Shown here piece by piece: positions 6,612-32,717 of a stretch of DNA of 34,669 nt (its first letter is position 1; the number at the start of each line of letters is the position of its first letter). The position numbers were made by a program, and so were the translations under genes. The notes beneath the pieces are model-generated. The model searched no databases. It was not told the origin of the DNA and was given only the letters and a program-made list of their open reading frames with translations. Origin of the DNA: a virus; UHGV virus genome UHGV-0090561. One strand, 5' to 3'.

Positions 6612-7402
6612 TTACGCCAGTTGTACGGACACGAACTCATCAGGGTCAGCCAGCAGCATCAGCGGTGCTGACTGAATCATGGTGAACTCACGCGCAGGAT
6701 CGCCGGTGGTCACCCAGTTTTTCGGGTAACGGGCAGAGGCGTTAATGCCTTCGCGCTGTGCGTCCGCATCCTGAATGCAGCCATAGGTGCGCAGACCGCG
6801 TGCCTGAGTGTTCCCCAGCACCATCGTGTTGTCCGGCAGGAAGTTCTTTTTGACGCCGTTTTCCACGTACTGCCCGGAATACACGACGATGGCCACATCG
6901 CCATACATCCCCTTATAGGACACCGCTTTACCCAGGTCTTTCACCGCTGTCTCCAGCTCGGAATGAGAGCCGCGACGGGTATCCAGCTTCTCCTTGACGG
7001 CTTTGAAGGAACGGAACAGCGCCCAGCCTTTCGGATCAAACACGATGATATTCACTACACCGCTGGCGTTCAGCGCGTAGGCTTCGATATCGTCGGTCGG
7101 GTCATACGTGGACTTGTCACGCTTGCTCCACTCCGTGCCACCGGACTGTGTGATGTTGTTCGCCGCACTGCGGCCCATATCCACCTCAACCGGATCGAAG
7201 GCTTCACCGGTCATGGTGTATTTGCCCTTAAGCACGGCAGAAACTGCCTGCATCTCTTCGACCTGGGCAATGGCCAGCTCTTCGTCACGCATGTTCTGCA
7301 TGATGATGCGACGGCGACGGTAAGCCGGGTCCGCCAGATTCTGTGGATCTTCATCCGGCAGGCGACGCAGGGTCATCTGCGGATTCACCTCATGCTTGGG
7401 CT
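6612..7402 (-). pseudogene. E: Major capsid protein E, 3' fragment (codons from PKHEVNPQ to end), separated from its 5' part by the insertion
   Basis: Translation ...PKHEVNPQMTLRRLPDEDPQNLADPAYRRRR...VSVQLA matches the C-terminal ~260 aa of lambda gpE; no start codon, and a TAG lies immediately upstream at the junction. Confidence 0.93.
7393..7402. repeat. Left copy of 10-bp direct repeat TGCTTGGGCT (putative att core / target duplication)
   Basis: Identical 10-mer at 18591-18600; both copies lie inside E coding sequence (AAG CCC AAG CA on the coding strand). Confidence 0.8.
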
Positions 7403-8440
7403 ACATGAGTCAATGACGTAAGTATGTGAATGATATAAGAGGAAAAATAGAGCATAATCTCTACCAGAATGACTATGTTGCAATACATGCTGCAATACAC
7501 AGAAATGAATTTACATGCTGTTCGATTATTAAGTTTCATAGCCGAGTTGCAGATCAGCAACTCACCCACCAGCCCAGATAATTTCATTTTCACACTGGAG
7601 GACTCCTTGAAATCAAGGAATCATAATCCTGCCATGTCATCATTCCGGCCTTCTCAGATTTGAGGTGTGCGGAAAAAATAAACGCTATTAAGCAGCTATG
7701 TGGGTACTGCACTTTTTGGGTAGTGCAACTATCCAGCTTCCTCAAATTAAGGATTGTGGAAAAATCAATGAGTCAGGTTTATTCCCCCGTTCTCCCCCAA
7801 TGGGGGTTTTCGAAAGAATCAATGGGTTAGGCCATCGTGCAAATTTGCACTCTGCCAGCCAACGCAATTTTGCGTTATCAGTCCTCAGATGTGAGGGATG
7901 TAGCCAGCTTTTCCCCCAGTGGGGATTATCCAGTTACCGACGGTTTAACCGCCTGTGCCAGCACAACGAAAGAATTTGCGGGTAGCTTTAAACTACTCAC
8001 AACATCCCATCTTACAGGCCGTGCCTTTCTAACTTTTTACAATGCAATAAGTCAGGTAACGCTATGCGTTCCACCGTGTACACCGCGCCAGTAAAACCCC
8101 CGGATTCGTGGTTTTCCTGAATATCAGGAATCTACCGCCGTAACCGCTCCTGCTTCTTCCACTGGTAAGTGTTTTTCGCGCTCTCCCTTCGCTACATGGA
8201 ACGGCGACGATATGGCAACAACTCCAGAACTCTGGTGCGTATGTTGCACATATCCACGCCGTTAAGCTCGATACCGTCACGGCGCATAACCTCAAGCACC
8301 ACACGCGCGTAATTTTCAGCGGTCGTGCTGTCCGACTGCGTTGTCTCCTGTTTGCCTGCTGCCTGATAGATATCACTGGAAACGTGCCGGATAAGTTCCA
8401 GCAGCAGAAAGGCGAGTTGCTACCGCGCAATTGTTGAACA

Positions 8441-8647
8441 AAAAACGAGAAAGGAAACGACACTGTCCAAAAAACACGTTTTCAGCACCTGCTGTTTCCT
8501 TTCTTTTTAGGGGGTATTTATAATAAAAACATTAAGTTACGGCAAAGAAGAACGGAAACGCCTTAAACCGGAAAATTTTCATAAATAGCGAAAACCCGCG
8601 CGCCTTCCGCCCCGTAACGCTCCGGATCACCGGAAAGGACCCGCTCA
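8441..8647. other. cos site of the satellite (cosN/cosB-like), near-identical to the prophage cos
   Basis: About 200 bp aligns almost base-for-base with 24798-25000, including the inverted GAAAGGAAACGAC / CGTTTCCTTTC terminase R-site-like repeats and the segment GCGAAAACCCGCGCGCCTTCCGCCCCGTAACG. Confidence 0.75.
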
Positions 8648-8730
8648 AAAAAAGCGGCCACTGACGTGATTGTTTATGTTCCATGAGCGACAAAACCGCC
8701 CGGAGGCGGTTTCACATAAAACATTTTGCA

Positions 8731-9378
8731 TCAGCGACCAATCACCACAACCTGACCACCATCACCTTCATCTGCCGTGCTGATCTCCTGAGATACCACT
8801 CGCGACCCCACACGCATTTCACCGTACAGAACGGGCAGAACATTGCCCTGGGCAACCATGTTATCCAGTGACGAGAAATACGTGTTCTGCTTACCGTTAT
8901 CCGTTGTCTGTGTGCGGGGAGTTCTGGCTTTCGGTGCCAGCATCTGCGCCACACCACCGAGCACCATACTGGCACCCGCACTATACATTCCTGTAATTGC
9001 TGCCGCTCCTAGCCAACCAGCGGGGTTCCACCACGCCACCGCAATCAGCGCCGCCCCCAGCACGGTCTGAAACACACCGCCACTTTTAGCGCCAGCAAGA
9101 CGCGGTACGATGTGGATCACAGCACCATTCGCCAGCGGCTCATTAAGACGGGCTGATAATTCATTTTCGCCTGCATCCCGCCCGGCAATCCGTACCTGAT
9201 ACCAACCGTCGCTCAGTTTCTGACGAAACGACGGTAGCTGTGTGGACAGAGCTCGGATGGCTTCAGCCCCCGTTTTTACACGAAGGTCGATGCGGTGGCC
9301 GAATCGTTGCAAATCCCCGTAAAGGCAGATTCGTGCCATGCCCGATGACGCCAGAGGGAGTGTGTGCGTCGTTGCCAT
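8731..9378 (-). CDS. Tail assembly protein I-like protein (lambda gpI family)
   Basis: 215-aa ORF MATTHTLPLASSGMARICLYGDLQRFG...QGNVLPVLYGEMRVGSRVVSQEISTADEGDGGQVVVIGR resembles lambda gpI as I recall it (N and C termini conserved, middle divergent); Shine-Dalgarno upstream. Confidence 0.65.
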   Translation of the reverse strand: MATTHTLPLASSGMARICLYGDLQRFGHRIDLRVKTGAEAIRALSTQLPSFRQKLSDGWYQVRIAGRDAGENELSARLNEPLANGAVIHIVPRLAGAKSGGVFQTVLGAALIAVAWWNPAGWLGAAAITGMYSAGASMVLGGVAQMLAPKARTPRTQTTDNGKQNTYFSSLDNMVAQGNVLPVLYGEMRVGSRVVSQEISTADEGDGGQVVVIGR

Positions 9379-9418
9379 TTGTCGGTATACCTCTCTCGTT
9401 TGCTCTGTTGTTCAGAAA

Positions 9419-9802
9419 TTAGCAGATCAACTTATAGCGTCCATTCCGAGCATTGCGGCGTACACGTTCAATCTTGAGGCATAGCGCCGCATCTGGCTTT
9501 TTTGGGACTGGTACACGGCAATATTCAGAAGCGCGAGGAATATTATTTATCCAGTCAATCACTTCGCTTAAATACCAGGCCTTACGCCCTTCCGTAACCT
9601 GCACACGCTCCGGGAACTCTCCACGGGCCTCAAGGTTTAGCAGTGTACGACGACTCAGGGTTGTAAGTTCCATTACCTGATTCATATCAACAAGACGCTC
9701 GCTTAAACGCATTTTGTCAGCGATAGCTTTTAATTCCTCTACAGCTGGATTTGGGTACATAATTTCGGCAATTGGCTTAAGGTCATTGTAATGATTCTGC
9801 AT
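9419..9802 (-). CDS. AlpA-like helix-turn-helix protein with N-terminal extension
   Basis: 127-aa ORF with GGGGGA Shine-Dalgarno; C-terminal half TTLSRRTLLNLEARGEFPERVQVTEGRKAWYLSEVIDWI resembles the AlpA/excisionase-type HTH. Confidence 0.6.
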   Translation of the reverse strand: MQNHYNDLKPIAEIMYPNPAVEELKAIADKMRLSERLVDMNQVMELTTLSRRTLLNLEARGEFPERVQVTEGRKAWYLSEVIDWINNIPRASEYCRVPVPKKPDAALCLKIERVRRNARNGRYKLIC

Positions 9803-9813
9803 TGTATCCCCCT

Positions 9814-10155
9814 TTACACACGAGCCAGCGGCTGAACAGAAATACCTGAGCCAACAAACGCTGCAACCTTTACTGACAGTTCTTTTACAGACTCAGGCCA
9901 GTTCAGAGCATCAACATTTAAGACACCTGTCTTATAGACCTGAGCCTGTGTTTTTTTCGCGGTGTCGATTTGTACAGCGGATACATAAACCGCTTTACCT
10001 ACGCTCGTACCATCCCATACCACCAGTGCACCTGTTGCATCTTCCTGCATCAGTGGCGTAAATGCAGGAATTACCCCTTTATTAGCTGAAAATATCCCCA
10101 GCGTAGTAACCAGTGCTTCAGTGCCAGCCATGAGTTCAGTGTAATGAGTAGCCAT
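9814..10155 (-). CDS. Head decoration protein, lambda gpD family (divergent)
   Basis: 113 aa; aligns by eye with lambda gpD (FTPLMQEDATGALVVWDGTSVG vs [22 protein letters not shown]; AFVGSGISV vs [10 protein letters not shown]); strong Shine-Dalgarno AAGGGGGAG. Confidence 0.7.
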   Translation of the reverse strand: MATHYTELMAGTEALVTTLGIFSANKGVIPAFTPLMQEDATGALVVWDGTSVGKAVYVSAVQIDTAKKTQAQVYKTGVLNVDALNWPESVKELSVKVAAFVGSGISVQPLARV

Positions 10156-10164
10156 TGCTCCCCC

Positions 10165-11205
10165 TTAGCCAATGCGAACGGTAACAAAACGATTGATGCG
10201 AGCCGGTATTGGCTGTGGTGCTGAATGTGTCTGCACATATTCAATAGCCGGATCACCAGGCACAATATAGTTTTTCGGTGCAAGTTCGGCTTTAGTCAGC
10301 CCCATTCGGATTAGCTCCGGGTCCTGAATACCGCCATAGGCGACAATCCCCTGAAGAGCCGTATTGCCAAGCACCATCAAATCAGGATCAAGGAAATGTT
10401 TTTCAGTTCCGTCCTCGTCGGTATAACGCCCGCTGTAAACAACAATCGCAACATCGCCCATATACCCTTTAAAACTCACCGAATCACCAAGGTCTTTAAG
10501 GGCCGTTTCCAGTTCGGAATTAGAACCACGACGGGTATCCAGAGCCTCTTTTATCGCTCTGAATGAACGGTATTTCTTCCATACATTACCGCCCATAATG
10601 ATGATATTAGTGACGCCCTCACTAAATTCTGCGTAGTTCTCAATATCATCATTTGGATCAAAAGTTTCTTTATCCTTACCTGACCACTCAGCACCGCCAG
10701 ACTGAGTGATGATATTTTGTGGTTTAATATTCCAGTCCAGCTCATAACGTTCAATACCATCGCCCTCAATGATATTTTTCCCCGTTGTGATTGCCTGAAC
10801 GGCAAGCCATTCAATACGTGCACGAATAGCTTTAGCTTGATTTACAATCGCCTGTTTAACTTTAATATTACGCGCCCCAAAAGCATTGTATTGCTCAGGT
10901 GATACACCAGCAGGGCGCACAGCTAACTTATTTGGATCAATGCTGCTTTTCGGCTTCATATAGCCTGGACGAATTGTTTTTGATTCGTACCCTTCGTCAC
11001 GTGAAACTTTACTACCCACCATAGGAGAACAAAACGCTGCAATTGGGATATTTGGATCGTCGATTGTATCAAGAATAATATCGCGCGATTCAAACATTAC
11101 CGAGCGAGTAAAAAACAAACGGGTAAACAACGCATTTAGTTGTTTTTGTACATCTACAGCATTAACCACCTGTACAAGCTGGGTAGGCGAATATAAATCA
11201 ACCAT
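10165..11205 (-). CDS. Major capsid protein, lambda gpE family (divergent satellite copy)
   Basis: About 346 aa from the ATG with AAGAGG Shine-Dalgarno; central block NIITQSGGAEWSGKDKETFDPNDDIENYA...AIKEALDTRRGSNSELETALKDLG...GDVAIVVYSG is clearly homologous to lambda gpE but far more diverged than the prophage copy. Confidence 0.85.
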   Translation of the reverse strand: MVDLYSPTQLVQVVNAVDVQKQLNALFTRLFFTRSVMFESRDIILDTIDDPNIPIAAFCSPMVGSKVSRDEGYESKTIRPGYMKPKSSIDPNKLAVRPAGVSPEQYNAFGARNIKVKQAIVNQAKAIRARIEWLAVQAITTGKNIIEGDGIERYELDWNIKPQNIITQSGGAEWSGKDKETFDPNDDIENYAEFSEGVTNIIIMGGNVWKKYRSFRAIKEALDTRRGSNSELETALKDLGDSVSFKGYMGDVAIVVYSGRYTDEDGTEKHFLDPDLMVLGNTALQGIVAYGGIQDPELIRMGLTKAELAPKNYIVPGDPAIEYVQTHSAPQPIPARINRFVTVRIG

Positions 11206-11422
11206 ACGCATCCTCTTTGCATTCATTAAAAATAATTGTGGATATATGCTATCACCGATATTTGTCATGCGAATACATGCAACCGAGTGCAATGTTGTAT
11301 AAAGTTTTGGGATGACAACTTCAGCGCGGATAATTAGTGTTAATATCTTCACTCCCTTTGGTCGGGATTTATGTAGCATGCCGGAAAATTTATTTTTTTC
11401 CGGCCTTTTTTATTGGCAATAT

Positions 11423-11872
11423 TTAAAACGGAATATCATCTCCCCATTGCTCATTATCTCCCACTGGTGGATGGCTTCCTTGCTGATCTGCCTGTTGTTT
11501 TGCTCTGTTCAGTGCGTCAGTAGCCTGCCCCTGTTGGCCTTTTTTGCCGCCCGGTCGCACCGTTCGCGCACTGATTACGCTGTCTGCGATAACCTGCCAG
11601 CCCTGCCGCGTTTCACCGTTCTGTCCAGTCCACTGACTCACCTGCATGTTACCCGCCACGCTCAGGAGTTCGCCTTTGTGATGCTTTGCCAGCGCGTCGG
11701 CTTGTCTGCCAAACGCCAGAACAGATAACCACATCGTCGCCTGACCGTCATCCGACTGGCTGCAGGGCAGTGATACCGCCATACGCGCCAGCGTCATGGG
11801 GGTGCCCTTGCTGGTCTGTTTTGTCTGCGGGGCGTCCACCAGCCGCCCGTAAGCTGCTATTTGCGCCGTCAT
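11423..11872 (-). CDS. ssb: Single-stranded DNA-binding protein
   Basis: 149-aa ORF with OB-fold-like N-terminus, Gly/Gln-rich linker and the characteristic acidic tail ending DDIPF. Confidence 0.85.
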   Translation of the reverse strand: MTAQIAAYGRLVDAPQTKQTSKGTPMTLARMAVSLPCSQSDDGQATMWLSVLAFGRQADALAKHHKGELLSVAGNMQVSQWTGQNGETRQGWQVIADSVISARTVRPGGKKGQQGQATDALNRAKQQADQQGSHPPVGDNEQWGDDIPF

Positions 11873-12126
11873 GCTGCCTGCTCTCCGGACTTAATATTGA
11901 TGGTTGTCACTTCCTCCGCTTCGGCAATCTCCCGTTCGGTCAGCGTGGCAAAGTTTGCAGCCGCCGTTGTCATGAATGCGCTTATCAGTTCGGGATGTGC
12001 TTTCGCGTATCCTTCCCCGGCGTTGCGGTCTATTGCCTTAATCGCCACCCTTAGCCAGTGTTCAGCCATATCAAGGGCGCGGTAATGTGGCTTTATATGT
12101 TTGTTCAGTTTTCCTGATGTGTGCAT
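11869..12126 (-). CDS. Hypothetical protein (satellite, between ori and ssb)
   Basis: 85-aa ORF whose stop overlaps the ssb start (operon-like); no recognisable family. Confidence 0.45.
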   Translation of the reverse strand: MHTSGKLNKHIKPHYRALDMAEHWLRVAIKAIDRNAGEGYAKAHPELISAFMTTAAANFATLTEREIAEAEEVTTINIKSGEQAA

Positions 12127-12169
12127 TTTTATTTTTACCCCCTCGTTTAAAAAGTTTTTTGTGCACCAC

Positions 12170-12404
12170 CACCTTGTCTACCTTGTCTACCTGATTAGTT
12201 ATCAGGCCAGTAATGGCGCGGGTTTCAGGGAGGTAGACAGCCCCAAATAGCTGTCTACCTCATCTCTACCCGTATCCTTACCTGTCTACAAAAATGGGTA
12301 GATAAGGTAGATAACAGGTAGACAGTGAAAAATAGTTATCTACCTGCATTAATACATTGAAATAAAAGTATTTTCTTTCAGTCAGGTAGACAAGGTAGAT
12401 AACC
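12170..12404. repeat. Iteron array (putative satellite replication origin)
   Basis: About 10 copies of GGTAGA(C/T)A / its reverse complement TGTCTACC in both orientations, immediately downstream of the primase-helicase gene. Confidence 0.8.
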
Positions 12405-12415
12405 ATTGCCATTTT

Positions 12416-14167
12416 TTATAAAAACGCATCGCAATCATCAGTAGTCGTTGCGTTGGTCTGCGTGACTCCCTTAACTTTTCGCGTAATATATTCATATCCG
12501 TAAACTTTCGCCGCTGACCTCATAGCCTTTCCGAACTCATTCACGCTCAAACATTTCCCCTTTCCTGTGTATGCCATGAAGGCCATATAGACACGGTAAA
12601 GGCTGTTTCTGGTCGTGTACTTCACGGAGTCACCACCACCGCCCATCATTAGCCCACGAGCTTCCTCCAGAAACTCAAGCGCCGCGCAAAGCTCAACAAC
12701 TGGATCCGTTTGCTGCTTTATTGCCAGAGCTTCATCACCGTCACGCTGTTCCAGTAGTAAAGCCCTTGCCTTTTCAGGGTCAGCAAAGTTAGCCAGCAAG
12801 CGGCGGATAATTACGGGGATTTCTGCCGCTATCTTTTCCGGTAATTCCTTGTCTTTTTCGTCCTCCCTTACAATGTTGTCGAACCGGAAAATCACCCGAC
12901 GGCGTGACACACCTCCGGCCCGTTCGGTAAAGATCATCGGGTCGTTATTGGTTGCCAGTACCACCGCCCTTATTATCGTCGTGAATCGCTTCTCATATTT
13001 CGGATTGATTTCAACGGGATCGCCTCCCGTGATTTTCTTGATGCCCGTGCCTTCCCCCGTATATTTCGGCTGATCGGCAAGGACGATAAGACGACTCCCG
13101 ACAACCTGCGCGCGCCCTCCTGCATCATCGAGTGATGTCATCTCTGCGCTTACGGTGTTCTGTTTGCCTGCAAGCAGGGTGGCAATATGGGTAAATGTAC
13201 TCTTACCGCTTCCCCCGTCTCCGGTGGCCTCAATGAACATCTGCCAGTCGTAGCGGTTCGCCATAATCATGTATAACGCGGCACATATACGCATCATCTT
13301 GCGCGGGTCTTTTCCTGCAGCATGTTCAAGCCATTTATGGAAATTTGGCGCATTATCGCGGATGTTTTCCCCTGCTACTGGTGGCGTGTACTCAATACCA
13401 TTGTGCGTGGTGCTCCAGTGCTCCGGCGAGTGCGGAGAAAATTCCCCCGTTTTCAGATTAAGCACACCATTAGTGAACGGTAGCAAATCACCGGACGGCT
13501 CCCCCATGGGGGCTGCAATAACTTTTAACGCTTCCACGGCGTTATTGATTACACGTTTGCTGAACGTGGCCCTGTGCTCTGAATAGATCGCCACCATTTC
13601 GCGGCTCAGCTCCATTGTGCTGACCGGACACCATACCCCGCCGCGCCATACGTGGACGATTTCACTTTCTGCATGAACACACACACCATCAAAGCGATCG
13701 GCAAGTAGTTGTGCACGTTCACTGTCTGCCATCTGTGAAAGTTGCGCCTTTTGCTTCGTCGGAAGATTAAGCACCAGACTTTCCCCACGCTCGCATTCCT
13801 CTTTGAGTCGCGGCAACTGGTCGGATAAATCCACTGGGCTGGTGTCAGTAATCCCCGCGTATTCGTGTACGGTCTTCACTCCAGCCACAGCCAGTAACGT
13901 AACAATCTGCGTCATGCTGTGCTCTGTGATATGTCCTGCGCGGTAAACACGCACACACTGACGATCTTCATCAATGATCCGGTAATCGGTGATATTTTTC
14001 AGTTGCTCATCAGCCAGCACGACAGGCGGCACATCGTCGGCGGCAATATGTTTACCCGCCCATTCCTGCCACTCTTTCGCATGGCTCCACGCATCACTAC
14101 CTGCAAAGATGATTACCTCTGTCAGTCTGTCGCGTGGCTGTTTTTTTAAGTTCGGTGCCAGTTTCAT
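12416..14167 (-). CDS. Primase-helicase (P4-family primase C-terminal / SF3 helicase-like replication initiator)
   Basis: 583-aa ORF with Walker A GDGGSGKST and downstream NTPase-like motifs typical of P4 alpha-type / PICI Pri-Rep proteins; followed by iterons. Confidence 0.8.
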   Translation of the reverse strand: MKLAPNLKKQPRDRLTEVIIFAGSDAWSHAKEWQEWAGKHIAADDVPPVVLADEQLKNITDYRIIDEDRQCVRVYRAGHITEHSMTQIVTLLAVAGVKTVHEYAGITDTSPVDLSDQLPRLKEECERGESLVLNLPTKQKAQLSQMADSERAQLLADRFDGVCVHAESEIVHVWRGGVWCPVSTMELSREMVAIYSEHRATFSKRVINNAVEALKVIAAPMGEPSGDLLPFTNGVLNLKTGEFSPHSPEHWSTTHNGIEYTPPVAGENIRDNAPNFHKWLEHAAGKDPRKMMRICAALYMIMANRYDWQMFIEATGDGGSGKSTFTHIATLLAGKQNTVSAEMTSLDDAGGRAQVVGSRLIVLADQPKYTGEGTGIKKITGGDPVEINPKYEKRFTTIIRAVVLATNNDPMIFTERAGGVSRRRVIFRFDNIVREDEKDKELPEKIAAEIPVIIRRLLANFADPEKARALLLEQRDGDEALAIKQQTDPVVELCAALEFLEEARGLMMGGGGDSVKYTTRNSLYRVYMAFMAYTGKGKCLSVNEFGKAMRSAAKVYGYEYITRKVKGVTQTNATTTDDCDAFL

Positions 14168-14463
14168 TTTTTGCCCCTGAATGCGTTAATCATGCTTTTC
14201 ATTTTCTGGATGTTTCCCCGCGCTTTTTCCCTGCTGGTGGGCTTACTGCGGGGTGCGGCATATACCAGGGAAAAATCACGCCGGAACTGATAAACAGGCA
14301 TCACACAGTCATAGCTATACCCCTCACGGCGGTAAGTGATGCGCCGTTCTGCCACGCCTTTAATCGTTACCGTGCCGCCGTATTTATCGCGGTAAATATC
14401 GCCGTTCATAAATTCAGGCCGAGCGGGGCCGCTGGCAATAAAGCCAGAATTTTTCATTTCCAT
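14164..14463 (-). CDS. Hypothetical protein (upstream of primase, ATGA overlap)
   Basis: 99-aa ORF translationally coupled to the primase start; no recognised family. Confidence 0.5.
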   Translation of the reverse strand: MEMKNSGFIASGPARPEFMNGDIYRDKYGGTVTIKGVAERRITYRREGYSYDCVMPVYQFRRDFSLVYAAPRSKPTSREKARGNIQKMKSMINAFRGKK

Positions 14464-14480
14464 ATTATTTATTCTTCGAC

Positions 14481-14702
14481 TTAACTCGACTTATTTGATA
14501 GCAGGGCACTATTTATTGCGTCATTGAGTTTTTCTGCTGCTTCATCAATAAGTGACAACAGGCCATAAGCAATATTTGCATCTTCATTGTCATTTATGCA
14601 ATCAAGCCACATATTTAATATTGCTTTTGCTGAATTATTTAAAGTTAATGAACTCTCTGCACATGCTAACAATTTAAAAAAGACTTCCCGTTCTGTATTC
14701 AT
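14481..14702 (-). CDS. Hypothetical small protein
   Basis: 73-aa ORF in a tightly packed co-directional array; AT-rich. Confidence 0.4.
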   Translation of the reverse strand: MNTEREVFFKLLACAESSLTLNNSAKAILNMWLDCINDNEDANIAYGLLSLIDEAAEKLNDAINSALLSNKSS

Positions 14703-14894
14703 TTAATCCCCCACCAGCTTACTTTCTTCCTCAATCAGGAAACTAGCGACACTTCCCGAAAGGCGCGCCAGTAGGCTCGCCAGCGCGGATATATCAGCAT
14801 CTGTAATTTTGTTCGGGTATACCTCAAGAAGGCGGCAAATAATTTCTGTTTGGTGCGCACGTTCAGCGGCTTCGTGTAATGTGATTTCCTGCAT
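14703..14894 (-). CDS. Hypothetical small protein
   Basis: 63-aa ORF abutting its neighbours without gaps. Confidence 0.4.
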   Translation of the reverse strand: MQEITLHEAAERAHQTEIICRLLEVYPNKITDADISALASLLARLSGSVASFLIEEESKLVGD

Positions 14895-15079
14895 TAATGC
14901 ACCTCTTTTAATTCATACACTGCTGAAATAATGACTTGTGATAAGCCATATTCTGATGATTCGCTTCTCACCGCAGCAATAGCCGTCTGAACATTAACAG
15001 CCTTCACGTTCTGAGTGATACCAATTGTGTGGCCTCGTGGGTTAACAGCTCGGGCAAATACACGGAAGGTTTTAAGCAC
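14894..15079 (-). CDS. Hypothetical small protein
   Basis: 61-aa ORF overlapping its neighbours by a few nt. Confidence 0.4.
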   Translation of the reverse strand: MLKTFRVFARAVNPRGHTIGITQNVKAVNVQTAIAAVRSESSEYGLSQVIISAVYELKEVH

Positions 15080-15275
15080 GGCACACCTCCTGACGAATAC
15101 GGGCAGCGAATACCATCACGCAGCCAGTTGGGGATTGCTGGCGGGCTTCCTGTTCGCTGATGGCCTCGATGGTAATCATGCGCGGTTGTGCCGTACTCAA
15201 GGCGATAAAACGCCAGATGTATTTATTCAGGTTGTGCGAGTTCCGCCCTTGCGGGTGTGTGGTATGATTTCTCAT
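15072..15275 (-). CDS. Hypothetical small protein (first gene of the leftward satellite operon)
   Basis: About 67 aa from the internal ATG preceded by a GAGG Shine-Dalgarno; the upstream part of the track ORF is not supported. Confidence 0.4.
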   Translation of the reverse strand: MRNHTTHPQGRNSHNLNKYIWRFIALSTAQPRMITIEAISEQEARQQSPTGCVMVFAARIRQEVCRA

Positions 15276-15474
15276 AGCTACCTCGATACTGTTGCTATCG
15301 TTGGTGGTTAGAAGCCCGTTGGTGTTCCTAGCACCTTCGGGCTTTGCTTTTTTAAGTGCCCCCGTGTTAAGGTGGTCACCTAACAATGAAAAGGCTAATT
15401 CAATAGGTGGTCACTTGTCAACGATCAAACGCGATAAAAGTCCTAAGGGTGATGGGCAATCTCCACAATTCAGA

Positions 15475-15606
15475 ATGCGAATTTCTCCAGAGCTAAAAGA
15501 GCAATTCGACAAAGAAGCGCAGAGCGACGGCATAAGCCTAGCCAACTGGCTTAAAGAATTAGGGCGCAAAGAGCTGCTACGGCGCGGTATTGAACCAAAA
15601 GGATAA
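15475..15606 (+). CDS. Ribbon-helix-helix (Arc/CopG-like) DNA-binding protein, putative
   Basis: 43-aa product MRISPELKEQFDKEAQSDGISLANWLKELGRKELLRRGIEPKG fits the RHH pattern; weak Shine-Dalgarno, so the start is uncertain. Confidence 0.45.
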   Translation: MRISPELKEQFDKEAQSDGISLANWLKELGRKELLRRGIEPKG

Positions 15607-15633
15607 GAATAATTGAAGTCAAGGAGCTAACAC

Positions 15634-15990
15634 ATGAAATACGAATTCTTCGCAACAAGTAGCAGTAGTTTGGATGTATACATAGTCACTGTATCAAACG
15701 ATTCTGGCTCGCTAATCATGACTTGTAATTGTCCAGCAGGAAGTAAAGGTATTCTATGTAGACACCGTAAAGCTTTAATTACCGGAAAAATCCGCGGTAT
15801 ATTCACTCCCCCAAGAAGGAATAATCCTGAAAAATTACAAGAAGCTATAAATTTAATAGCCACATATGGCATAGATAAAACATTAAAGTTGTACACTGAT
15901 GAGTTAGAACGAGCAGAACAGACTTGGATAAGTGTTCGCGATAATTTGAGAGCAATGATAAACGCTCTTGTTGAACCACCTAAATATTGA
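15634..15990 (+). CDS. SWIM zinc-finger protein, small
   Basis: 118-aa ORF with AAGGAG Shine-Dalgarno; motif CNCPAGSKGILCRH matches the SWIM CxCxnCxH signature; followed by an intrinsic terminator. Confidence 0.7.
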   Translation: MKYEFFATSSSSLDVYIVTVSNDSGSLIMTCNCPAGSKGILCRHRKALITGKIRGIFTPPRRNNPEKLQEAINLIATYGIDKTLKLYTDELERAEQTWISVRDNLRAMINALVEPPKY

Positions 15991-16056
15991 ACTGTTCACA
16001 TTGCCTATCAGGCGATAACCTCGTATTCTGATTAAGGCTAACTATATACTCACATT

Positions 16057-16080
16057 GGCGACCAATTCTGGTCGCCTTTA
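16057..16080 (+). terminator. Rho-independent terminator after the SWIM gene
   Basis: GGCGACCA-attc-TGGTCGCC hairpin followed by TTTA; position hand-counted. Confidence 0.6.
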
Positions 16081-16121
16081 TCCACCATTTTTATAATATC
16101 ATAGATTAAAAGTGTTAATCC

Positions 16122-16952
16122 TTACCCCCTGAATGGAATTGATGAGGATTTAATTTCCACAGAACTAAATCCTCTTGAATCCAAGAACATTTTTATACCA
16201 GCCTCAATAAAATCATAATCGTTTGTCGGGCCAATTGTAATGCTTTTAATTGGTAACTTTCTATTATCTTTATTATCAATGATGATATAAGGGATGATCC
16301 CATTATTATTTATTCTGAAGTGCACATCTGGCATTTGCATCCACGGAGTAAATACCAATCTAAATTCATTCTCTTCGATAAAACTAGGATGTTTAAAAAA
16401 TGGGATGTATTTAGATATAAATTGATACGTAGAGACCATTGTTACAAAATGATCATTCATTTCTTTAATATTAATACCATTACAAGAAAAAAACTCCCCC
16501 AACTCCTTACTCATCTTAGTAATATCGTTATTATTTGAATATATAACATCATGTGCAACACAATTTAAATAAATATTTTGAGAAAAGCTCACAAGTTCAT
16601 CCGCATCAAACTCAATGCAAACACCCTGTTTATTTCCGTAACCTCTCCACTGACTTAACTTATCGTTTTCCTTACAAAAAGAGATGCTATAAACATGTTT
16701 ATCAATCCCTTTTTCTTTTTGTAACCTCCCTTTCTCATACATGTCAAGAGACTTGAGCAAAATAGTTTTCTTATCTTTTGGAATGATATTATCATCAACT
16801 ATTTTAATTGTATTTCGAAAGCATTCACATCCATGGTTAGACTCCTCTTTATCATTTAAGAAATATATGTTTGTAGCCCATAAAGAATTAGAGTCTAATA
16901 TACCTTTCAAACCAAAAAGATCTGTATAATGAAATATAGCCACAATGCCCAC
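16122..16952 (-). CDS. DUF2971-like protein (satellite cargo, function unknown)
   Basis: 276-aa ORF, markedly AT-rich versus its neighbours; N-terminal FHYTD...YFLNDKEE resembles the DUF2971 motif as I recall it (not verified by HMM); GTG start 7 nt after the alpA stop. Confidence 0.55.
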   Translation of the reverse strand: MGIVAIFHYTDLFGLKGILDSNSLWATNIYFLNDKEESNHGCECFRNTIKIVDDNIIPKDKKTILLKSLDMYEKGRLQKEKGIDKHVYSISFCKENDKLSQWRGYGNKQGVCIEFDADELVSFSQNIYLNCVAHDVIYSNNNDITKMSKELGEFFSCNGINIKEMNDHFVTMVSTYQFISKYIPFFKHPSFIEENEFRLVFTPWMQMPDVHFRINNNGIIPYIIIDNKDNRKLPIKSITIGPTNDYDFIEAGIKMFLDSRGFSSVEIKSSSIPFRG

Positions 16953-16959
16953 CTAATAG

Positions 16960-17190
16960 TTAAGTTGTTTCCCACTCACCTCGAATCCATGCCTGCACTT
17001 CTGAAAGACGATATGCAACAGCAGTGGAACCAATCTTGATCCGCTTAGGAAATTTTCCTTCCTTCTCCAGCTTCCAGCGTGTGCTGTTCGCAAGAGTGGT
17101 TAGCTCCCGACATTCTTTCTCACGGATCATTCGGTCAATGTTAGGAATGTACTCCAGACCCTTTTTATCAACAATTGCCATTTTTTTCAT
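16960..17190 (-). CDS. alpA: AlpA-family transcriptional regulator / excisionase-like protein
   Basis: 76-aa ORF immediately downstream of int; ...RELTTLANSTRWKLEKEGKFPKRIKIGSTAVAYRLSEVQAWI is the AlpA HTH pattern. Confidence 0.8.
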   Translation of the reverse strand: MKKMAIVDKKGLEYIPNIDRMIREKECRELTTLANSTRWKLEKEGKFPKRIKIGSTAVAYRLSEVQAWIRGEWETT

Positions 17191-17191
17191 G

Positions 17192-18427
17192 CTAACCAGC
17201 CTTTTGTTTGAGGATTGTCACTTTTGAATCAGCAGCTGCGATGCTATTGAGATATGTAGTCCAGAGTTCCAGAGCATCCAGTTTTTTAGCCATAAACTTA
17301 CTCCGGTTGTAAACACCTGCCACGCCAGGTAGCGCATGGCCTAACAGTTGTTCTACTACATAAAATTCAACACCGAGATCACTTAGATGAGTAGATAGCG
17401 TTCTTCTAAGGTCGTGTAGTGACCATTGTTTTTCATGGCCCAAACGTTTACCGATTTTCCCCCCAATCTTGCTTACGCTTTCTCTAATTCGCAGACTTCC
17501 CAGCACATAACCAGTATGTTTTGTCTCTTCGTGAACATCCGTTACCCACTGTCGTAGAATTTCAGGTACTGGTCTGACGATTTCAACACCAGTTTTTGAG
17601 TGATCTTTTGGCACAGTCCAAACCCAACTTTCGAGATCCCATTCGCTCCATTCTGATAATCGGGCTTCACTCATTCGACATCCAAATACTGTACAAAGCA
17701 CAAACATTTTTCGCGTGTATTCAGACATTAGTTTTAAATCAGGCTCGACAAAAATTGCCTTCCAGAGCTGGCCCAGTTCGGCTTCATCCAGAACCCGATC
17801 CCGCTTACCTGCAATCTGCCCCACATCACTCATGCGCAAATCCTTTAAAGCATCACACGTCGCGTACTGGCGTACCCGACAAAAACGAAGAGCTAATTTA
17901 GTGTCAGAAAAAACATACGCCGCCATAACTGGTGCATTACGTTTAATTCGGTCAAAACAGTCCAGCCATTCATATAGGTGAGTGTCATTTACGGGCAAAT
18001 GACCGATATAGGGAAAGATATGCTTTCGAAATCTGCCAAGCGTTACAGCATGAGTTTTACGACGCACCTTACAGTAATTTTCATACCAGTAATTTAGTGC
18101 ATCCTCCACTGTGACCGGCTTTAAGCGTTCTTCAGCCTGAATCTTAATCTGGATACGCGGATCACGTTTGTCAGCCAACCAAGCACGGCACTCGTCGCGC
18201 TTTTCCCTTGCCTGTTTGAGTGACATATCAGGATATTTACCCAACGTTAGCCAGACCGGAGCAGCCCGGCCACCTGCTAACCTGTAGAAGAAAACAAAGC
18301 TCACAGCCCCCTTGGTACTCACACGAATAGAAAGCCCCTTTCCATCAGCAATGGTGATCTGCTTTTCTCTGGGTTTCCCCAGATATCCTTTAAGTGCTTT
18401 GTCGCTCAGTTTGTTCTCGCCAGCCAT
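17192..18427 (-). CDS. int: Tyrosine recombinase (phage integrase family)
   Basis: About 411 aa from the internal ATG (MAGENKLSDK...); C-terminal catalytic region with HDLRRT...LLGH...Y-type motifs; adjacent to the right junction and direct repeat. Confidence 0.88.
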   Translation of the reverse strand: MAGENKLSDKALKGYLGKPREKQITIADGKGLSIRVSTKGAVSFVFFYRLAGGRAAPVWLTLGKYPDMSLKQAREKRDECRAWLADKRDPRIQIKIQAEERLKPVTVEDALNYWYENYCKVRRKTHAVTLGRFRKHIFPYIGHLPVNDTHLYEWLDCFDRIKRNAPVMAAYVFSDTKLALRFCRVRQYATCDALKDLRMSDVGQIAGKRDRVLDEAELGQLWKAIFVEPDLKLMSEYTRKMFVLCTVFGCRMSEARLSEWSEWDLESWVWTVPKDHSKTGVEIVRPVPEILRQWVTDVHEETKHTGYVLGSLRIRESVSKIGGKIGKRLGHEKQWSLHDLRRTLSTHLSDLGVEFYVVEQLLGHALPGVAGVYNRSKFMAKKLDALELWTTYLNSIAAADSKVTILKQKAG

Positions 18428-18589
18428 TTTTAGCCCCAAAAAGCAATACAAGCTGCAATACAGAGATGATTGCAACACACAGATAACGAGGAAAATCCAG
18501 TGAAAGCGCCAGATAAACTTATTCTTTATTATCAAAAGATTAAGTGTAAAAACCAGCAACTACACGAAAGCCTCAGAAAGCCATGCTAA

Positions 18590-18835
18590 GTGCTTGGGCT
18601 TGACATATCCCGGTGTAAATTCAGAGGTGGAGCCGCCACGGGAGCGGATAACCTCACCGGAAACAATCGGCGAAACGTACAGCGCCATGTTTACCAGTCC
18701 CGGAATTTGTGAGAGATAGACTTTCTCCGTGGTGAAGGGATAGCTCTCACGGAAAAAGAGACGCAGAAACAGCGGATCAAACTTAAATTTCTTCTCATTT
18801 GCCGCCAGCAGCTGGGCGGTTGTGTACATCGACAT
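18590..18835 (-). pseudogene. E: Major capsid protein E, 5' fragment (first ~81 codons), reading into the insertion
   Basis: MSMYTTAQLLAANEKKFKFDPLFLRLFFRESYPFTTEKVYLSQIPGLVNMALYVSPIVSGEVIRSRGGSTSEFTPGYVKPKH matches the lambda gpE N-terminus, then diverges (LAWLSEAFV, stop) at the junction. Confidence 0.93.
18591..18600. repeat. Right copy of 10-bp direct repeat TGCTTGGGCT
   Basis: Identical to 7393-7402; lies at the codons KPKH of E. Confidence 0.8.
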
Positions 18836-18890
18836 AAAAAAATCCCGTAAAAAAAGCCGCACAGGCGGCCTTTAGTGATGAAGGGTAAGG

Positions 18891-28307: not shown

Positions 28308-29111
28308 ATGACAGAAAAAGATAACATTGGTAAGTTAATTTGGCATATTGCTTGCGATGAATCTGGCATTGATGGGCAACGTTTCTACGGCTTTGGCAGT
28401 CTGTGGATGAAGTACCAACGCCGTGGGGATTTCTGTCAACTAATCAGAGAACTACGCAGCAAACATGGTTTTTTTGAAGAAATAAAATGGCAAAAAGCCC
28501 ATTCAAAAAGATACTCTGAATTTTATCTTGAGCTGATCGACTTATTCTTTAGAGTTCCTTGGCTAGCTTTTCATTGTATCGTGGTTGAAAAATCAATAGT
28601 AAACAAGGCATTTCATAATGGGGATTATGACCTGGCAAGGAGAAAGCACTTCACAAATCTCATTACCACAAAAATTAGCTCTGTAATTTCTGCACACCCT
28701 GAAAGAGACAGTTACTTCAGGATTGAAGTTGATCCTATCGCATCTCGTTATAAAAAGGCCGATGAAGAACTAAATGTTATTGCCAATAACATATTGAATA
28801 GAAAATTTGGTCGTAAAGGGATAATCAGCAGTGTAGTGACAAAAGACTCTAAAGCATCTGAAAACATTCAGCTAGCCGATTTTTTCTTAGGTGCGGTTAT
28901 GTGCGCATATCAAGGAAAAGCTTCATCTGAAGCCAAAATAAGAGTATCAAACTATGTTGCTTCATATTTAGGCTGGGATCATTTGCAATATGATACATGG
29001 CACACTGAGAGAAAATTTAATATCTGGTATTTTTATGATAAAACTCGAGGGCCACGAGATATAGAAACTCAAAATGTTAGCTTAAAGTATCCACTTCCCC
29101 AAAAGAAATAG
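28308..29111 (+). CDS. DUF3800-like protein (accessory gene between Q and S, antisense to late transcription)
   Basis: 267-aa ORF in a markedly AT-rich island; N-terminal HIACDESG and C-terminal IQLADFFLGAV resemble the DUF3800 motifs as I recall them (not HMM-verified). Confidence 0.55.
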   Translation: MTEKDNIGKLIWHIACDESGIDGQRFYGFGSLWMKYQRRGDFCQLIRELRSKHGFFEEIKWQKAHSKRYSEFYLELIDLFFRVPWLAFHCIVVEKSIVNKAFHNGDYDLARRKHFTNLITTKISSVISAHPERDSYFRIEVDPIASRYKKADEELNVIANNILNRKFGRKGIISSVVTKDSKASENIQLADFFLGAVMCAYQGKASSEAKIRVSNYVASYLGWDHLQYDTWHTERKFNIWYFYDKTRGPRDIETQNVSLKYPLPQKK

Positions 29112-32099: not shown

Positions 32100-32717
32100 T
32101 TAAAAAAGCGATAAGCTTTGCCCCGAATTCATCGGTAGTGGAGAGAAAGTAACATCACGTATTTGCTCCCCGAGCAGAAGAAACCTATCCAAGGGTAGCG
32201 GCGGTATCGTAGCAAACCCTGAAAGCCCCTTCTTTCTTGCAACATCTCTCGCATCCATAAGGATACGACCTAACACGTTCATACCATAAAAGTTACCTTC
32301 GGAGTCTTTACTAGCCCCCCAAAATTGGTCCTTCTCTGAGTGCTCAACAATGTCATGCTCTCCTGTGCTATCCAGGAGCGCGAAAAACGATTCCCAGTTC
32401 TGGCAAAGCTTAACGCAGACACACCATTTCATTACCGAAACTCGATTTTTTTCCCAACCTGCACGGGTTTTGGCTTCGAAAGATCTGGCAGTTTGTTTAG
32501 CTTCATAAGGGTTGCCTTGGGTAATAATAGCCTTTTGGATATCTGGATAGTCTGGATATCGGCATGCTTGGTAAAGAATTTCACTCGATTGAATGGGTAT
32601 ACCATTAACTAAGAGCGGATATCCTTTGGCCATGTTGGAAAGCCCCCCCCATTTCTCGGTGGTTTTCCTGAAAGAAACTGTGTTGTGAAACAGGTATAGT
32701 CTATAGCTCATGATCAC
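32100..32717 (-). CDS. NADAR-domain (YbiA-like, DUF1768) protein, putative
   Basis: 205-aa ORF; N-terminal FRKTTEKWGGLSNMAKGYP...SSEILYQACRY fits the NADAR N-terminal pattern as I recall it; ATGA overlap with the upstream gene. Confidence 0.55.
   Translation of the reverse strand: MIMSYRLYLFHNTVSFRKTTEKWGGLSNMAKGYPLLVNGIPIQSSEILYQACRYPDYPDIQKAIITQGNPYEAKQTARSFEAKTRAGWEKNRVSVMKWCVCVKLCQNWESFFALLDSTGEHDIVEHSEKDQFWGASKDSEGNFYGMNVLGRILMDARDVARKKGLSGFATIPPLPLDRFLLLGEQIRDVTFSPLPMNSGQSLSLF

Follow-up and report, generated by a model that had tools for sequence, protein, structure and literature searches.

Helper-embedded PICIs that interrupt the capsid gene E of lambdoid prophages are known already, the configuration having been published as 11capE, with a 10-bp block and a doubled TGTATTGC motif at 81 and 132 bp from the centre of attP (Mageeney et al. 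2023, PMC10111431); the motif positions published for helper-embedded PICIs leave nothing beyond ~100 bp from the core. Eco567.11capE, from the same paper (PMC10111431), shares with the island examined here its capsid E target, 10-bp block, doubled TGTATTGC motif at 81/132 bp, gene order, size (~11 kb) and the position of a helper-like cos, while the repeat array and pseudogene treated below are not described there. EcCICFT073, the model E. coli PICI, has the same end layout, i.e., packaging gene, cos, 93-aa PHROG-1561 gene, array and att, and its array holds three perfect IHF cores on the antisense strand; the array is not among the EcCICFT073 features that were mutated (Fillol-Salom 2018, 2019). 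By contrast with the present island, in which cosB is complete and lambda-like, rpp is missing and the PHROG-1561 gene is dead, EcCICFT073 carries rppA together with a PICI-specific cosB and a second cos in inverted orientation. On the phage side, rha is regulated by IHF and harms phage growth without it (PMC4936722), and HK022 Roi and IHF mutants were the subject of a 1996 paper by Clerget & Boccard. Our literature search found no description of such arrays at PICI ends.

The window analyzed here is a stretch of 34,669 nucleotides from virus genome UHGV-0090561. Positions 7403–8440 had been described in an earlier note, made from the sequence alone, as AT-rich non-coding DNA with several palindromes and a promoterless ORF remnant. 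An 11.2-kb helper-embedded PICI (7403–18601) lies within capsid gene E of a lambdoid prophage, and the stretch makes up its integrase-distal end. By profile search, the two halves of capsid E (6612–7388 and 18560–18862) correspond to profile positions 84–340 and 1–82, respectively, so that a prophage late gene is split by the island, with lambdoid head and tail genes on both flanks; the island itself contains int, alpA, primase and ori, and all of its genes lie on the minus strand, co-oriented with the helper late genes. Strain FDAARGOS_1296 has the same junction. The landmarks of the element are as follows.

7393–7402, second copy at 18592–18601: 10-bp att identity block TGCTTGGGCT, the crossover region
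7403–7540: integrase-distal att arm, 31.9% GC, carrying the doubled motif
8132–8419, minus strand: pseudogene of the PHROG-1561 family (PHROG match, E = 7e-27)
8441–8660, minus strand: lambda-type cos site, with cosQ, cosN, then cosB as R3-I1-R2-R1
8601–8612, minus-strand reading: cosN GGGCGGAAGGCG, identical to the cosN of the helper
12231–12403: origin iterons
12416–14167, minus strand: D5-type primase
16960–17190, minus strand: AlpA
17192–18559, minus strand: Int

The doubled motif GCAATACAtgctGCAATACA (i.e., GCAATACA), which the earlier note had missed, lies at 7480–7503 and is the reverse complement of the published tgTGTATTGCantgTGTATTGCa; its partner at 18443–18466 was detected by repeat-family search, and the two are ~81 and 132 bp from the crossover block, the spacing published for helper-embedded PICIs. 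The suggestion that the region holds attP arm sites therefore stands for the first ~140 bp only. None of the palindromes listed in the earlier note falls in that arm, and they are not arm sites, since PICIs with different integrases and att sites have them as well, and their distance from the junction varies. Similarly, the description as AT-rich applies to the 138-bp att arm and in comparison with the helper prophage (56–57% GC), while the stretch as a whole, at 46.7% GC, matches the rest of the element (45.8%).

In the direction of the island genes (minus strand), cos is followed by the dead PHROG-1561 gene, ~600 bp of degenerate ~54-bp units and the att arm; the left junction, the placement of cos and the ORF remnant had all been called correctly. 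The cos site was identified by three-way alignment of the island, lambda cos and the helper's own cos, with matches to lambdoid phages as well. It is colinear with lambda (12-nt cosN, full lambda-like cosB), and homology ends where Nu1 would begin; at the place of rpp or Nu1-like terS in relatives, the island, which lacks rpp, has a lambda gpI-like gene instead. Packaging would begin at this cos (8441–8660) and proceed leftwards across the stretch. The minus-strand open frame without a start codon is real, bounded by TAG at 8420–8422 and 8192–8194, and belongs to the PHROG-1561 remnant, in which the start codon is gone, a premature TAG stands at 8192–8194 (QQ to M*) and another TAG lies upstream at 8420–8422. 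With the start codon missing and an internal stop, this copy is a pseudogene; relatives carry an intact, 93-aa copy, and sibling contig L034 has identical lesions. That the remnant is promoterless means little, as it lies inside an operon. PHROG-1561 had no match in Pfam, NCBIfam or PDB. Its identification as Rpp was rejected, the best PDB match of the 93-aa relative reaching only E = 0.96 (RppC structure compared), and in EcCICFT073 RppA is encoded by a separate, 144-aa gene upstream. The array was likewise rejected as a PICI cosB, pac site or origin, since cos is complete at 8441–8660 and the origin iterons lie at 12231–12403.

Positions ~7540–8135 are occupied by a tandem array of degenerate ~54-bp units, each with a variable palindrome and an IHF-consensus tail, with fragments of Bro-family genes interspersed.

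7544–7735, plus strand: outer, strongly decayed part of the array, tails no longer matching the IHF core
7544–7563: palindrome GAGTTGCAGATCAGCAACTC, variants of which recur in other PICIs
7604–7619: palindrome TCCTTGAAATCAAGGA, variants of which recur in other PICIs
7651–7662: palindrome CTCAGATTTGAG, read off the sequence, with only 4-bp arms
7708–7727: inverted repeat TGCACT..AGTGCA
7736–7781, plus strand: unit of the roi 'LPQIE' class
7789–7834, plus strand: best-preserved unit, with CCCCCAATGGGGG (7794–7806), then TTTTCGAAAG, then the perfect IHF core AATCAATGGGTTA (7817–7829)
7836–7930, plus strand: four truncated units, tails short or deleted, with palindromes GTGCAAATTTGCAC (7837–7850), AACGCAATTTTGCGTT (7861–7876), CCTCAGATGTGAGG (7883–7896) and TCCCCCAGTGGGGA (7912–7925)
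7970–8011, plus strand: fragment of a P22AR / ant N-terminal-type antirepressor gene, reading KNLRVALNYSQHPI
8060–8118, minus strand: KilA-N domain gene fragment (ENHESGGFT / RGVHGGT), frameshifted by 1 nt and with the palindrome AAAACC..GGTTTT inside
8114–8130: last unit, palindrome TTCCTGAATATCAGGAA, adjoining the ancestral stop codon of the pseudogene

The window's copy of the array is partly decayed, with several mutated units and one perfect IHF core. This core, WATCAANNNNTTR, stands ~11–12 bp past the palindrome; it is perfect in the unit with 7817–7829 and is 1–2 mismatches off or truncated in the others. In the unit at 7736–7781, the palindrome CCTCAAATTAAGG (7740–7752) has one arm mutated and is one mismatch from the CCTCAAATTGAGG class, the tail core AATCAATGAGTCA (7763–7775) is one mismatch off WATCAANNNNTTR, and over 52 nt the unit shares 88% identity with an internal stretch of an intact Rha/KilAC antirepressor gene. 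The palindrome, spacer and core of the unit at 7789–7834 are those of intact 243–252-aa roi-family genes coding for ..QLPPMGVFENINSLS.., and among the truncated units, AACGCAATTTTGCGTT is followed in relatives by a full tail, ATCGGGAATATCAGCAAGTTACCG. The tail of the last unit, GAATATCAGGAATCTACCG, extends into the 3' end of the pseudogene. The antirepressor fragment is 95% identical over 44 nt (tblastn and blastn against L005), with the ant gene of phage CP-1639 matched, and the KilA-N fragment is 87% identical over 60 nt to KilA-N genes, including hkbK of HK620. The elements that the earlier note had listed were recovered here, namely the palindromes GTGCAAATTTGCAC and AACGCAATTTTGCGTT, the two C5/G5 stem-loops (CCCCCAATGGGGG followed by TTTT at 7794–7810, and CCCCCAGTGGGG at 7913–7924) and the direct repeat GGGTACTGCAC / GGGTAGTGCAAC (7702–7730), the last of which also supplies the two arms of the inverted repeat at 7708–7727; it had not recognized the palindromes as members of a repeating unit. 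Perfect hairpins with stems of at least 5 bp numbered 12 in 7403–8135 as compared to 4.25 ± 2.0 in dinucleotide shuffles, 0 of 500 of which reached 12, such short hairpins being approximately three times commoner than chance. The stretch holds no convincing ORF, as had been claimed: the plus-strand ORFs 7698–7985 and 7837–8094 had no family match and contain frameshifting indels in close relatives, and between array alleles an eye count gave ~4 non-synonymous to 3 synonymous substitutions. A coding role for them was rejected on these grounds.

Similar arrays are found at the ends of E. coli PICIs from at least six integration sites, with EcCICFT073 among these islands, and PICI ends from six sites align to the same repeat unit. 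In relatives, WATCARNNNNTTR was matched 3–5 times per 600 bp, all on one strand and none on the other, against 0.02–0.06 in shuffles, and core spacings were often 54 or 68 bp. Units of these arrays are repeated 3–10 times head to tail in one orientation, with several allele classes mixed. A perfect stem of at least 5 bp was present just upstream of the core in 34% of distinct core-bearing sequences versus 4.5% of random 26-mers, and the stems at that one offset from the IHF core comprise more than 12 different sequences. Comparison with related elements, a check that had been proposed earlier with lack of conservation as the refuting outcome, found the palindromes conserved. The middle module (7880–8110) is missing in sibling contig L034, and much of the stretch can therefore be dispensed with. 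Block 7836–8117 is near-identical among PICIs, while a second allele of the block differs by ~20% and the block and its adjacent gene recombine independently; a general claim of purifying selection was rejected on these two observations, and the near-identity reflects module exchange rather than steady purifying selection. One array (L107) keeps ~28 extra nt of roi upstream sequence, in the manner of a truncated gene. Cargo stands beside the array in some relatives, be it a Q-family antiterminator between array and att or an adjoining Doc-family toxin. Judged from an evenly spaced listing of matches, several hundred of the 5,426 complete E. coli genomes covered by the search contain array-type matches. 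Two scans of species-representative genomes found no arrays outside E. coli, the first returning none and the second 8 loci in distant phyla that were taken for chance matches, which suggests that the feature is young.

The array units are near-exact copies of a segment present once in intact phage roi/rha genes, at approximately codons 45–58, and phage matches to the units fall in roi, anti-repressor and KilA-N genes. The roi gene of HK022 contains CCTGCATTGCAG, 12 nt and then AATCAATGATTTA, its palindrome and spacing being those of the PICI unit CCTGCATTGCAGG-TTTTCGAAATA-ATCAATGGGTTAGG, and intact roi alleles with CCCCCAATGGGGG-TTTTCGAGAA-TATCAANNNNTTA exist. At least three palindrome classes of the PICI arrays match three different roi allele classes. 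Among 80 roi homologues, collected by means of motifs outside the palindrome–core segment, palindrome and core occur together in five of six allele classes, and the remaining class, which lacks the palindrome, lacks the core as well. Work on HK022 Roi and IHF mutants is said to have placed Roi binding within the roi gene itself, next to an IHF site, with IHF stabilizing the binding.

Regulatory protein binding sites, one of several roles that had been offered for the region, are the best-supported reading, given palindromes at a fixed distance from the IHF consensus and units copied from within phage roi/rha genes. We consider it about an even chance that the array is a cluster of predicted IHF and Roi/Rha-type operator sites with a role as DNA and not as RNA. 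It would then be bound by host IHF and by helper-phage Roi/Rha-type proteins, and would copy the operator-plus-IHF arrangement by which Roi reportedly binds inside its own gene; assignment of the palindrome as the putative Roi site is our own. No Rha/Roi-domain protein was found to be encoded by the island, so any such binder would come in trans, and as the modules normally occur once inside roi/rha genes, the satellite may carry landing pads for regulators of its helper phage. In the circular island, the resulting nucleoprotein block would stand between the packaging operon and attP-int, where it could serve as a roadblock or boundary, or else could sense or sequester the Roi/Rha of the helper. 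Simple IHF titration is questionable because IHF is abundant. Several further observations count against this explanation: the window's copy is degenerate, with its one perfect core and a mutated CCTCAAATTGAGG palindrome; no roi/rha gene was found between P and Q (nin region) in the part of the helper that the window covers; L034 lacks the middle module; the near-identity of block 7836–8117 reflects module exchange; and the feature seems to be young.

A further-reaching and more speculative version, which we would rather bet against than for, is that E. coli phage satellites capture or sense helper Roi/Rha together with IHF through operator-plus-IHF modules at their integrase-distal end, copied from several roi/rha alleles of helper phages. 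This could set up a helper-dependent roadblock that separates the packaging operon from attP-int; alternatively, an autoregulatory repressor could be titrated off the helper's roi/rha gene, turning a self-control circuit of the phage against it. As a corollary of this version, palindrome-plus-IHF modules in coding sequence would be a general feature of Bro-family regulator genes.

The array may instead be non-functional debris, the leftovers of recombination between PICIs and helper Bro-family genes (roi/rha, ant, kilA-N) plus slippage duplications, perhaps kept only as filler for a packageable length (4 × 11.2 kb = 44.8 kb); this is a serious possibility, albeit not a likely one. Fragments of three Bro-family genes in both orientations, the mutated units in the window, the loss of the middle module from L034, the mosaic histories of the block and its neighboring gene, and the truncated-gene-like L107 array are all consistent with debris, and PICI size has been reported to matter for cos packaging. 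Debris, however, would not be expected to be restricted to the ~54-bp operator-plus-IHF segment of three or more roi allele classes, with the excerpts set head to tail in a single orientation at regular spacing, nor to retain more than 12 different palindromes that remain perfect at the same core offset, and the arrays persist in compact 10–12-kb islands at six or more integration sites, EcCICFT073 among them. In another reading, the repeated tails would be homology patches flanking a cargo hot spot at PICI 3' ends, through which cargo and helper modules are swapped. Immune systems are reported at the 5' or 3' ends of PICIs, cargo adjoins the array in the relatives with the antiterminator and the toxin, and the modules flanking the units are shuffled among islands. 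Homology patches, however, require neither a fixed distance between palindrome and IHF core nor a single orientation, and no unit-specific recombinase is evident; we regard such a recombination anchor as improbable. An assignment of the whole kilobase to attP arm sites for Int, AlpA and IHF, or to a P4-type immunity RNA, has very little probability: the doubled motif and AT-rich arm at 7403–7540 and a perfect IHF core in the other arm (18530–18542) agree with it, whereas islands whose integrases and att sites are unrelated have the array too, at distances from the junction that vary, the published motif positions leave no room more than ~100 bp from the core, and the Bro zone near int, rather than this end, is where C4/isrK-type RNAs have been reported.

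A structured RNA, either a 3' trailer of the packaging operon (minus strand) or a small RNA, whose hairpins would stabilize the transcript or pair with antirepressor mRNAs, is a quite unlikely reading. The minus strand folds better than shuffles (z = −3.6; the plus strand not clearly, z = −1.9), and the units are antisense to roi coding sequence over ~50 nt, which makes pairing of a minus-strand RNA with helper antirepressor mRNAs conceivable; the KilA-N fragment, however, has the opposite orientation, so that one and the same transcript would be complementary to some targets but of the same strand as others. Rfam returned nothing at gathering scores for the whole window and one chance-level U12 match (E = 0.5) at E ≤ 1 in 7000–9500, and the C4 and isrK covariance models had no match in either search. 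A promoter and terminator scan of 7300–8800 gave one promoter-like and one terminator-like site as compared to 1.8 and 1.7 in shuffles. Single non-Watson–Crick hairpin pairs were near random (26 G.T, 12 A.C and 71 other), with a slight wobble excess on the strand opposite the better fold, and palindrome covariation was rejected on this test as a signal of RNA or DNA hairpins. The P4-type small RNA of the earlier note thus finds no support, with Rfam empty, no RNA-type strand bias in wobble pairs and no promoter or terminator signal above chance. Symmetric changes in the palindromes are explained equally well by dimeric proteins of differing specificity, and the link to roi led us to drop the RNA-hairpin reading of that symmetry. 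Integron attC sites, type III toxin–antitoxin RNA repeats and REP/BIME elements were rejected informally on sequence and architecture, as were CRISPR repeats or mimics of them, 7909–7937 bearing a faint resemblance to a I-E repeat.

Rpp, capsid-size factors and AlpA activation are among the known protein-based means by which PICIs exploit their helpers. If the array is indeed a cluster of Roi/Rha-type and IHF sites, a copy in cis of a helper regulator's operator would differ in kind from these, in that the island would mimic a phage control site with its own DNA. A function would then fall to 5% of a very compact element, in a stretch also present in EcCICFT073, and the little-studied Roi/Rha-IHF circuit would be revived. 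If the array is debris, its value lies in annotation, in that fragments of roi, ant and kilA-N gather at the 3' cargo hot spot of PICIs, and the locus still documents that both rpp/terS and the PHROG-1561 gene have gone from the cos-only islands of this lineage.

RIB/RIP elements (BIME-1), in which REP palindromes stand on either side of an IHF site, lie at the 3' ends of E. coli operons, and the array resembles them in that short palindromes alternate with IHF sites just past the last gene of a transcription unit; it differs in having no REP similarity, palindromes of 11–16 bp versus ~35 bp, direct repeats and an origin in phage coding sequence. In the sopC locus of plasmid F, a 43-bp unit is repeated twelve times in tandem, and SopB binds the inverted repeat within each copy. 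Array and sopC have in common tandem units of ~45–55 bp with a short inverted repeat as an actual or possible protein-binding site, but the sopC repeats are near-identical and served by one binder encoded in cis, whereas the array palindromes vary from unit to unit. The phage genes themselves are counterparts as well: HK022 roi and the rha genes of phi80 and P22 have the palindromes CCTGCATTGCAG, CCTCAAATTGAGG and CCCCCAATGGGGG in common with PICI units, as well as the ~12-nt spacing to the WATCAANNNNTTR core and often the spacer sequence too. In the phages, however, the module is single, lies inside coding sequence and serves its own gene, while in the PICIs it is non-coding and present in 3–10 head-to-tail copies of mixed allele classes, with the gene for the cognate protein absent in cis.

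The lambdoid late region on the minus strand (Nu1, A, portal, protease and D, later FI to the tape-measure gene) carries capsid gene E in two pieces, with the C-terminal 258 codons ending at 7388 and the first ~82 codons at 18560-18862. Between these halves lies an 11,199-bp element with the 10-bp repeat TGCTTGGGCT at both borders (7393-7402 and 18592-18601) and every gene on the minus strand.

Features of the element between the capsid E halves
17192-18559, minus: tyrosine integrase
16960-17190, minus: AlpA, adjoining int, its usual place
16122-16952, minus: DUF2971 gene, lying between alpA and the regulatory zone in DNA of 32% GC
15072-15386, minus: transcriptional repressor (phrog_6196); position in relatives is its sole likeness to Icd
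14164-14463, minus: DUF4222
12416-14167, minus: D5-type primase
12231-12403: iterons AGGTAGACAG.. and GGTAGATAAGGTAGATAAC, just downstream of the primase gene
11423-11872, minus: SSB
10165-11379, minus: capsid E homologue
9814-10155, minus: decoration protein
9419-9802, minus: second AlpA-like protein, between the decoration and gpI-like genes of the late zone
8731-9378, minus: homologue of lambda gpI, tail assembly protein I (PF06805, E = 6e-24)

This configuration, a phage-inducible chromosomal island (PICI) embedded in its helper, has already been published as Eco567.11capE (PMC10111431), and complete E. coli genomes contain a near-identical insertion. The iterons are the expected satellite replication origin. 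Two AlpA-family genes (16960-17190 and 9419-9802) are present in the satellite. The DUF2971 gene is probably cargo and possibly anti-phage; in the helper, a PRTase-CE and NADAR gene pair in the nin region (32100-33733, minus) and an oppositely oriented DUF3800 gene that separates Q from the lysis genes (28308-29111, plus; low-GC DNA) are candidate defence genes or morons. The gpI homologue is found directly upstream of cos, where relatives have rppA or a Nu1-like 'terS'. It is unusual for a PICI packaging module to include a tail-assembly gene, and this one could be relevant to tail hijacking or interference.

Between the left border and cos (7403-8440), all palindromes and repeats listed in the earlier note were found in place. 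The interval 7403-8135 contains 12 perfect hairpins whose stems have 5 bp or more, as against 4.25 ± 2.0 in dinucleotide shuffles, of which 0/500 reached 12. The description of the stretch as AT-rich holds for its first 138 bp only (7403-7540; 31.9% GC), the stretch having 46.7% GC versus 45.8% for the element. These 138 bp constitute the att arm: GCAATACAtgctGCAATACA at 7480-7503, with a co-oriented partner at 18443-18466, is the doubled TGTATTGC motif published at ~81 and 132 bp from the attP centre (PMC10111431), and stands at those distances. The suggested attP arm sites are accordingly retained for the first 140 bp and not for the remainder. The doubled motif was unlike an IHF site in the published account (PMC10111431); the integrase-proximal arm, where a perfect IHF core (TATCAAAAGATTA, 18530-18542, plus) lies ~55-70 bp from the crossover block, may have an IHF site apart from that motif.

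No intact gene is present in the stretch, as had been proposed: plus-strand ORFs have no family match, are broken by indels in relatives and differ between alleles by mostly non-synonymous substitutions (counted by eye). The ORF remnant at 8132-8419 matches PHROG 1561 (E = 7e-27), for which relatives encode an intact 93-94-aa protein; it has no start codon, QQ has become M-stop at 8192-8194, and it is a dead gene. Searches of Pfam, NCBIfam and PDB gave no match to the PHROG-1561 protein. The sibling contig L034 has the two lesions as well, along with a helper-type cos. In relatives and in the model E. coli PICI, EcCICFT073, the gene comes after rppA or the Nu1-like 'terS', and its loss accompanies rppA/'terS' loss in the cos-only lineage.

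The ~600 bp from ~7540 to 8135 form a repeat array. PICI ends were aligned from inserts at capsid E, portal, thiM, dinD, clpS and yejO, as well as from EcCICFT073 next to phoQ, and all exhibit tandem units of ~45-54 bp in a single orientation downstream of the PHROG-1561 gene. Each unit comprises a short, unit-specific palindrome (e.g., CCTCAaatTGAGG, CCCCCaatGGGGG, CCTGCattGCAGG, TTCGCCgctGGCGAA, CAGCCgttGGCTG, AACGCAAttTTGCGTT, GTGCAAatTTGCAC) and a conserved tail (e.g., TTTTCGAAAgAATCAATGGGTTAGGC or ATCGGGAATATCAGCAAGTTACCG) with the IHF consensus WATCARNNNNTTR as its core. Core matches in relatives' arrays number 3-5 per 600 bp (shuffles, 0.02-0.06), all on the plus strand and 0 on the minus, often spaced by 54 or 68 bp. 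Just upstream of the core, 34% of distinct core-bearing sequences have a perfect stem of 5 bp or longer, compared with 4.5% of random 26-mers. A search of complete E. coli genomes (5,426) produced 925 records with a match to some portion of the stretch, and about half of an evenly spaced listing of these matches were intergenic and array-type. Two scans of species-representative genomes yielded no convincing array (one nil, the other 8 loci in distant phyla, presumed chance), and its distribution looks restricted to E. coli. EcCICFT073 has similar arrays, which are not among its features mutated in published studies, and the PICI literature searched, keyword searches included, does not mention the array. 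Within the array, TTTTCCCCCAGTGGGGATTATCC (7909-7937) shows a loose similarity to the type I-E CRISPR repeat of E. coli, GTTCCCCGCGCCAGCGGGGATAAACC; it follows the general unit pattern with a much shorter stem, and the likeness was judged to be chance.

Parts of the array have matches within phage genes whose annotation is roi, anti-repressor, KilAC or KilA-N; in Rha-domain antirepressors, the counterpart of the unit is codons ~45-58 (..GVIRLPQIEDCGRINGLG..). HK022 roi contains CCTGCATTGCAG followed after 12 nt by AATCAATGATTTA, with palindrome and spacing identical to those of a PICI unit, and other intact roi-family genes carry CCCCCAATGGGGG-TTTTCGAGAA-TATCAANNNNTTA, CCTCAAATTGAGG-TTTCCGAAAG-AATCAATAACTTA or CCTGCATTGCAGG-TTTTCGAAAA-AATCAATAACTTA. 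Among 80 roi homologues retrieved via motifs outside the unit segment (L162-L241), palindrome and IHF core occur together at about codons 36-62 in five of the six allele classes; the sixth (LPPMQKVENKQ) has neither. The I-N-x-L motif uses ATC for Ile and TTA for Leu in all five core-bearing classes seen, as the IHF core requires, which hints at DNA-level selection inside the roi coding sequence. Since unit palindromes and cores match several roi classes, the arrays string together one ~54-bp excerpt from at least three of them. Short fragments of an ant/P22AR-type gene (7970-8011, plus) and of a frameshifted KilA-N gene (8060-8118, minus) are also present in the window's array. KilA-N genes (L006 1723-1782; HK620 hkbK) themselves contain a perfect palindrome with 9-bp arms, AAAAACCACgaatctGTGGTTTTT, within the coding sequence for KNHESVVF. 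This suggests that Bro-family regulator genes may often carry operators within their coding sequence. The insertion, att motif and cos have been described before; the new part would be the use that a satellite makes of the roi operator/IHF module, as an array outside coding sequence.

According to work on HK022 by Clerget and Boccard (J Bacteriol 1996), Roi reportedly binds a site inside its own gene that is closely linked to an IHF site, and IHF is said to stabilise this binding. We infer that the array palindrome is a Roi site. Its arms would change symmetrically because dimeric regulators that differ in specificity require matching changes in the two half-sites, which explains the symmetric changes without hairpins. 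The rha gene of phi80 and P22 harms lytic growth without IHF and is under IHF regulation (PMC4936722). Array units would be bound by IHF and also by Roi/Rha-type proteins that helper phages supply in trans, no gene for such a protein having been found in the island. With the island circular or concatemeric, the array would lie between the packaging operon and attP-int, where a Roi-IHF complex could block transcription across the junction; alternatively, the array could draw Roi and IHF off the helper's own roi gene. The observation in the earlier note is confirmed and its interpretation partly supported: of the roles it offered, protein-binding sites fare best, as sites predicted from homology to the roi palindrome and IHF core.

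What is established about the array is how it is composed, its homology, its orientation and where it occurs. The protein-site reading as a whole has about an even chance of being correct. The main rival, which we consider rather unlikely, is that the array is debris of recombination with helper Bro-family genes, perhaps retained as length filler. Consistent with debris, the window's array is worn, with one perfect core (7817-7829) and remaining units that have 1-2 mismatches or truncated tails. The array is also modular: a left module (7737-7879) occurs in every type, and the middle (7880-8110) is variable, missing from L034 and thus dispensable. Histories are mosaic as well, the block and the neighbouring gene recombining independently and a second block allele being ~20% different. 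Slight support for an RNA role comes from the fold of the minus strand (z = -3.6). Against such a role, the P4-type small RNA once suggested included, Rfam gave no usable match, the wobble test was unfavourable, and promoter and terminator signals did not exceed chance. Read as protein sites, the array offers a concrete, testable lead on satellite-helper cross-talk, in a copy that is partly decayed in the window.

The cos at 8441-8660 aligns base for base with lambda cosQ-cosN-cosB (R3, I1, R2, R1) and with the helper cos near 24.9 kb, and homology ends exactly at the would-be Nu1 start. Satellite cosN (GGGCGGAAGGCG, 8601-8612) is identical to that of the helper, whereas lambda differs (GGGCGGCGACCT). 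Packaging would thus begin at 8601-8612 and proceed leftwards through the stretch. EcCICFT073 (L120; NC_004431) has one cosN upstream of rppA and a second, inverted, between rppA and the PHROG-1561 gene (37556 and 38304), presumably the published cos1 and cos2. Unlike EcCICFT073, the satellite retains a full lambda-like cosB (R3-I1-R2-R1); combined with a helper-identical cosN, this should let unmodified terminase from the helper package it.
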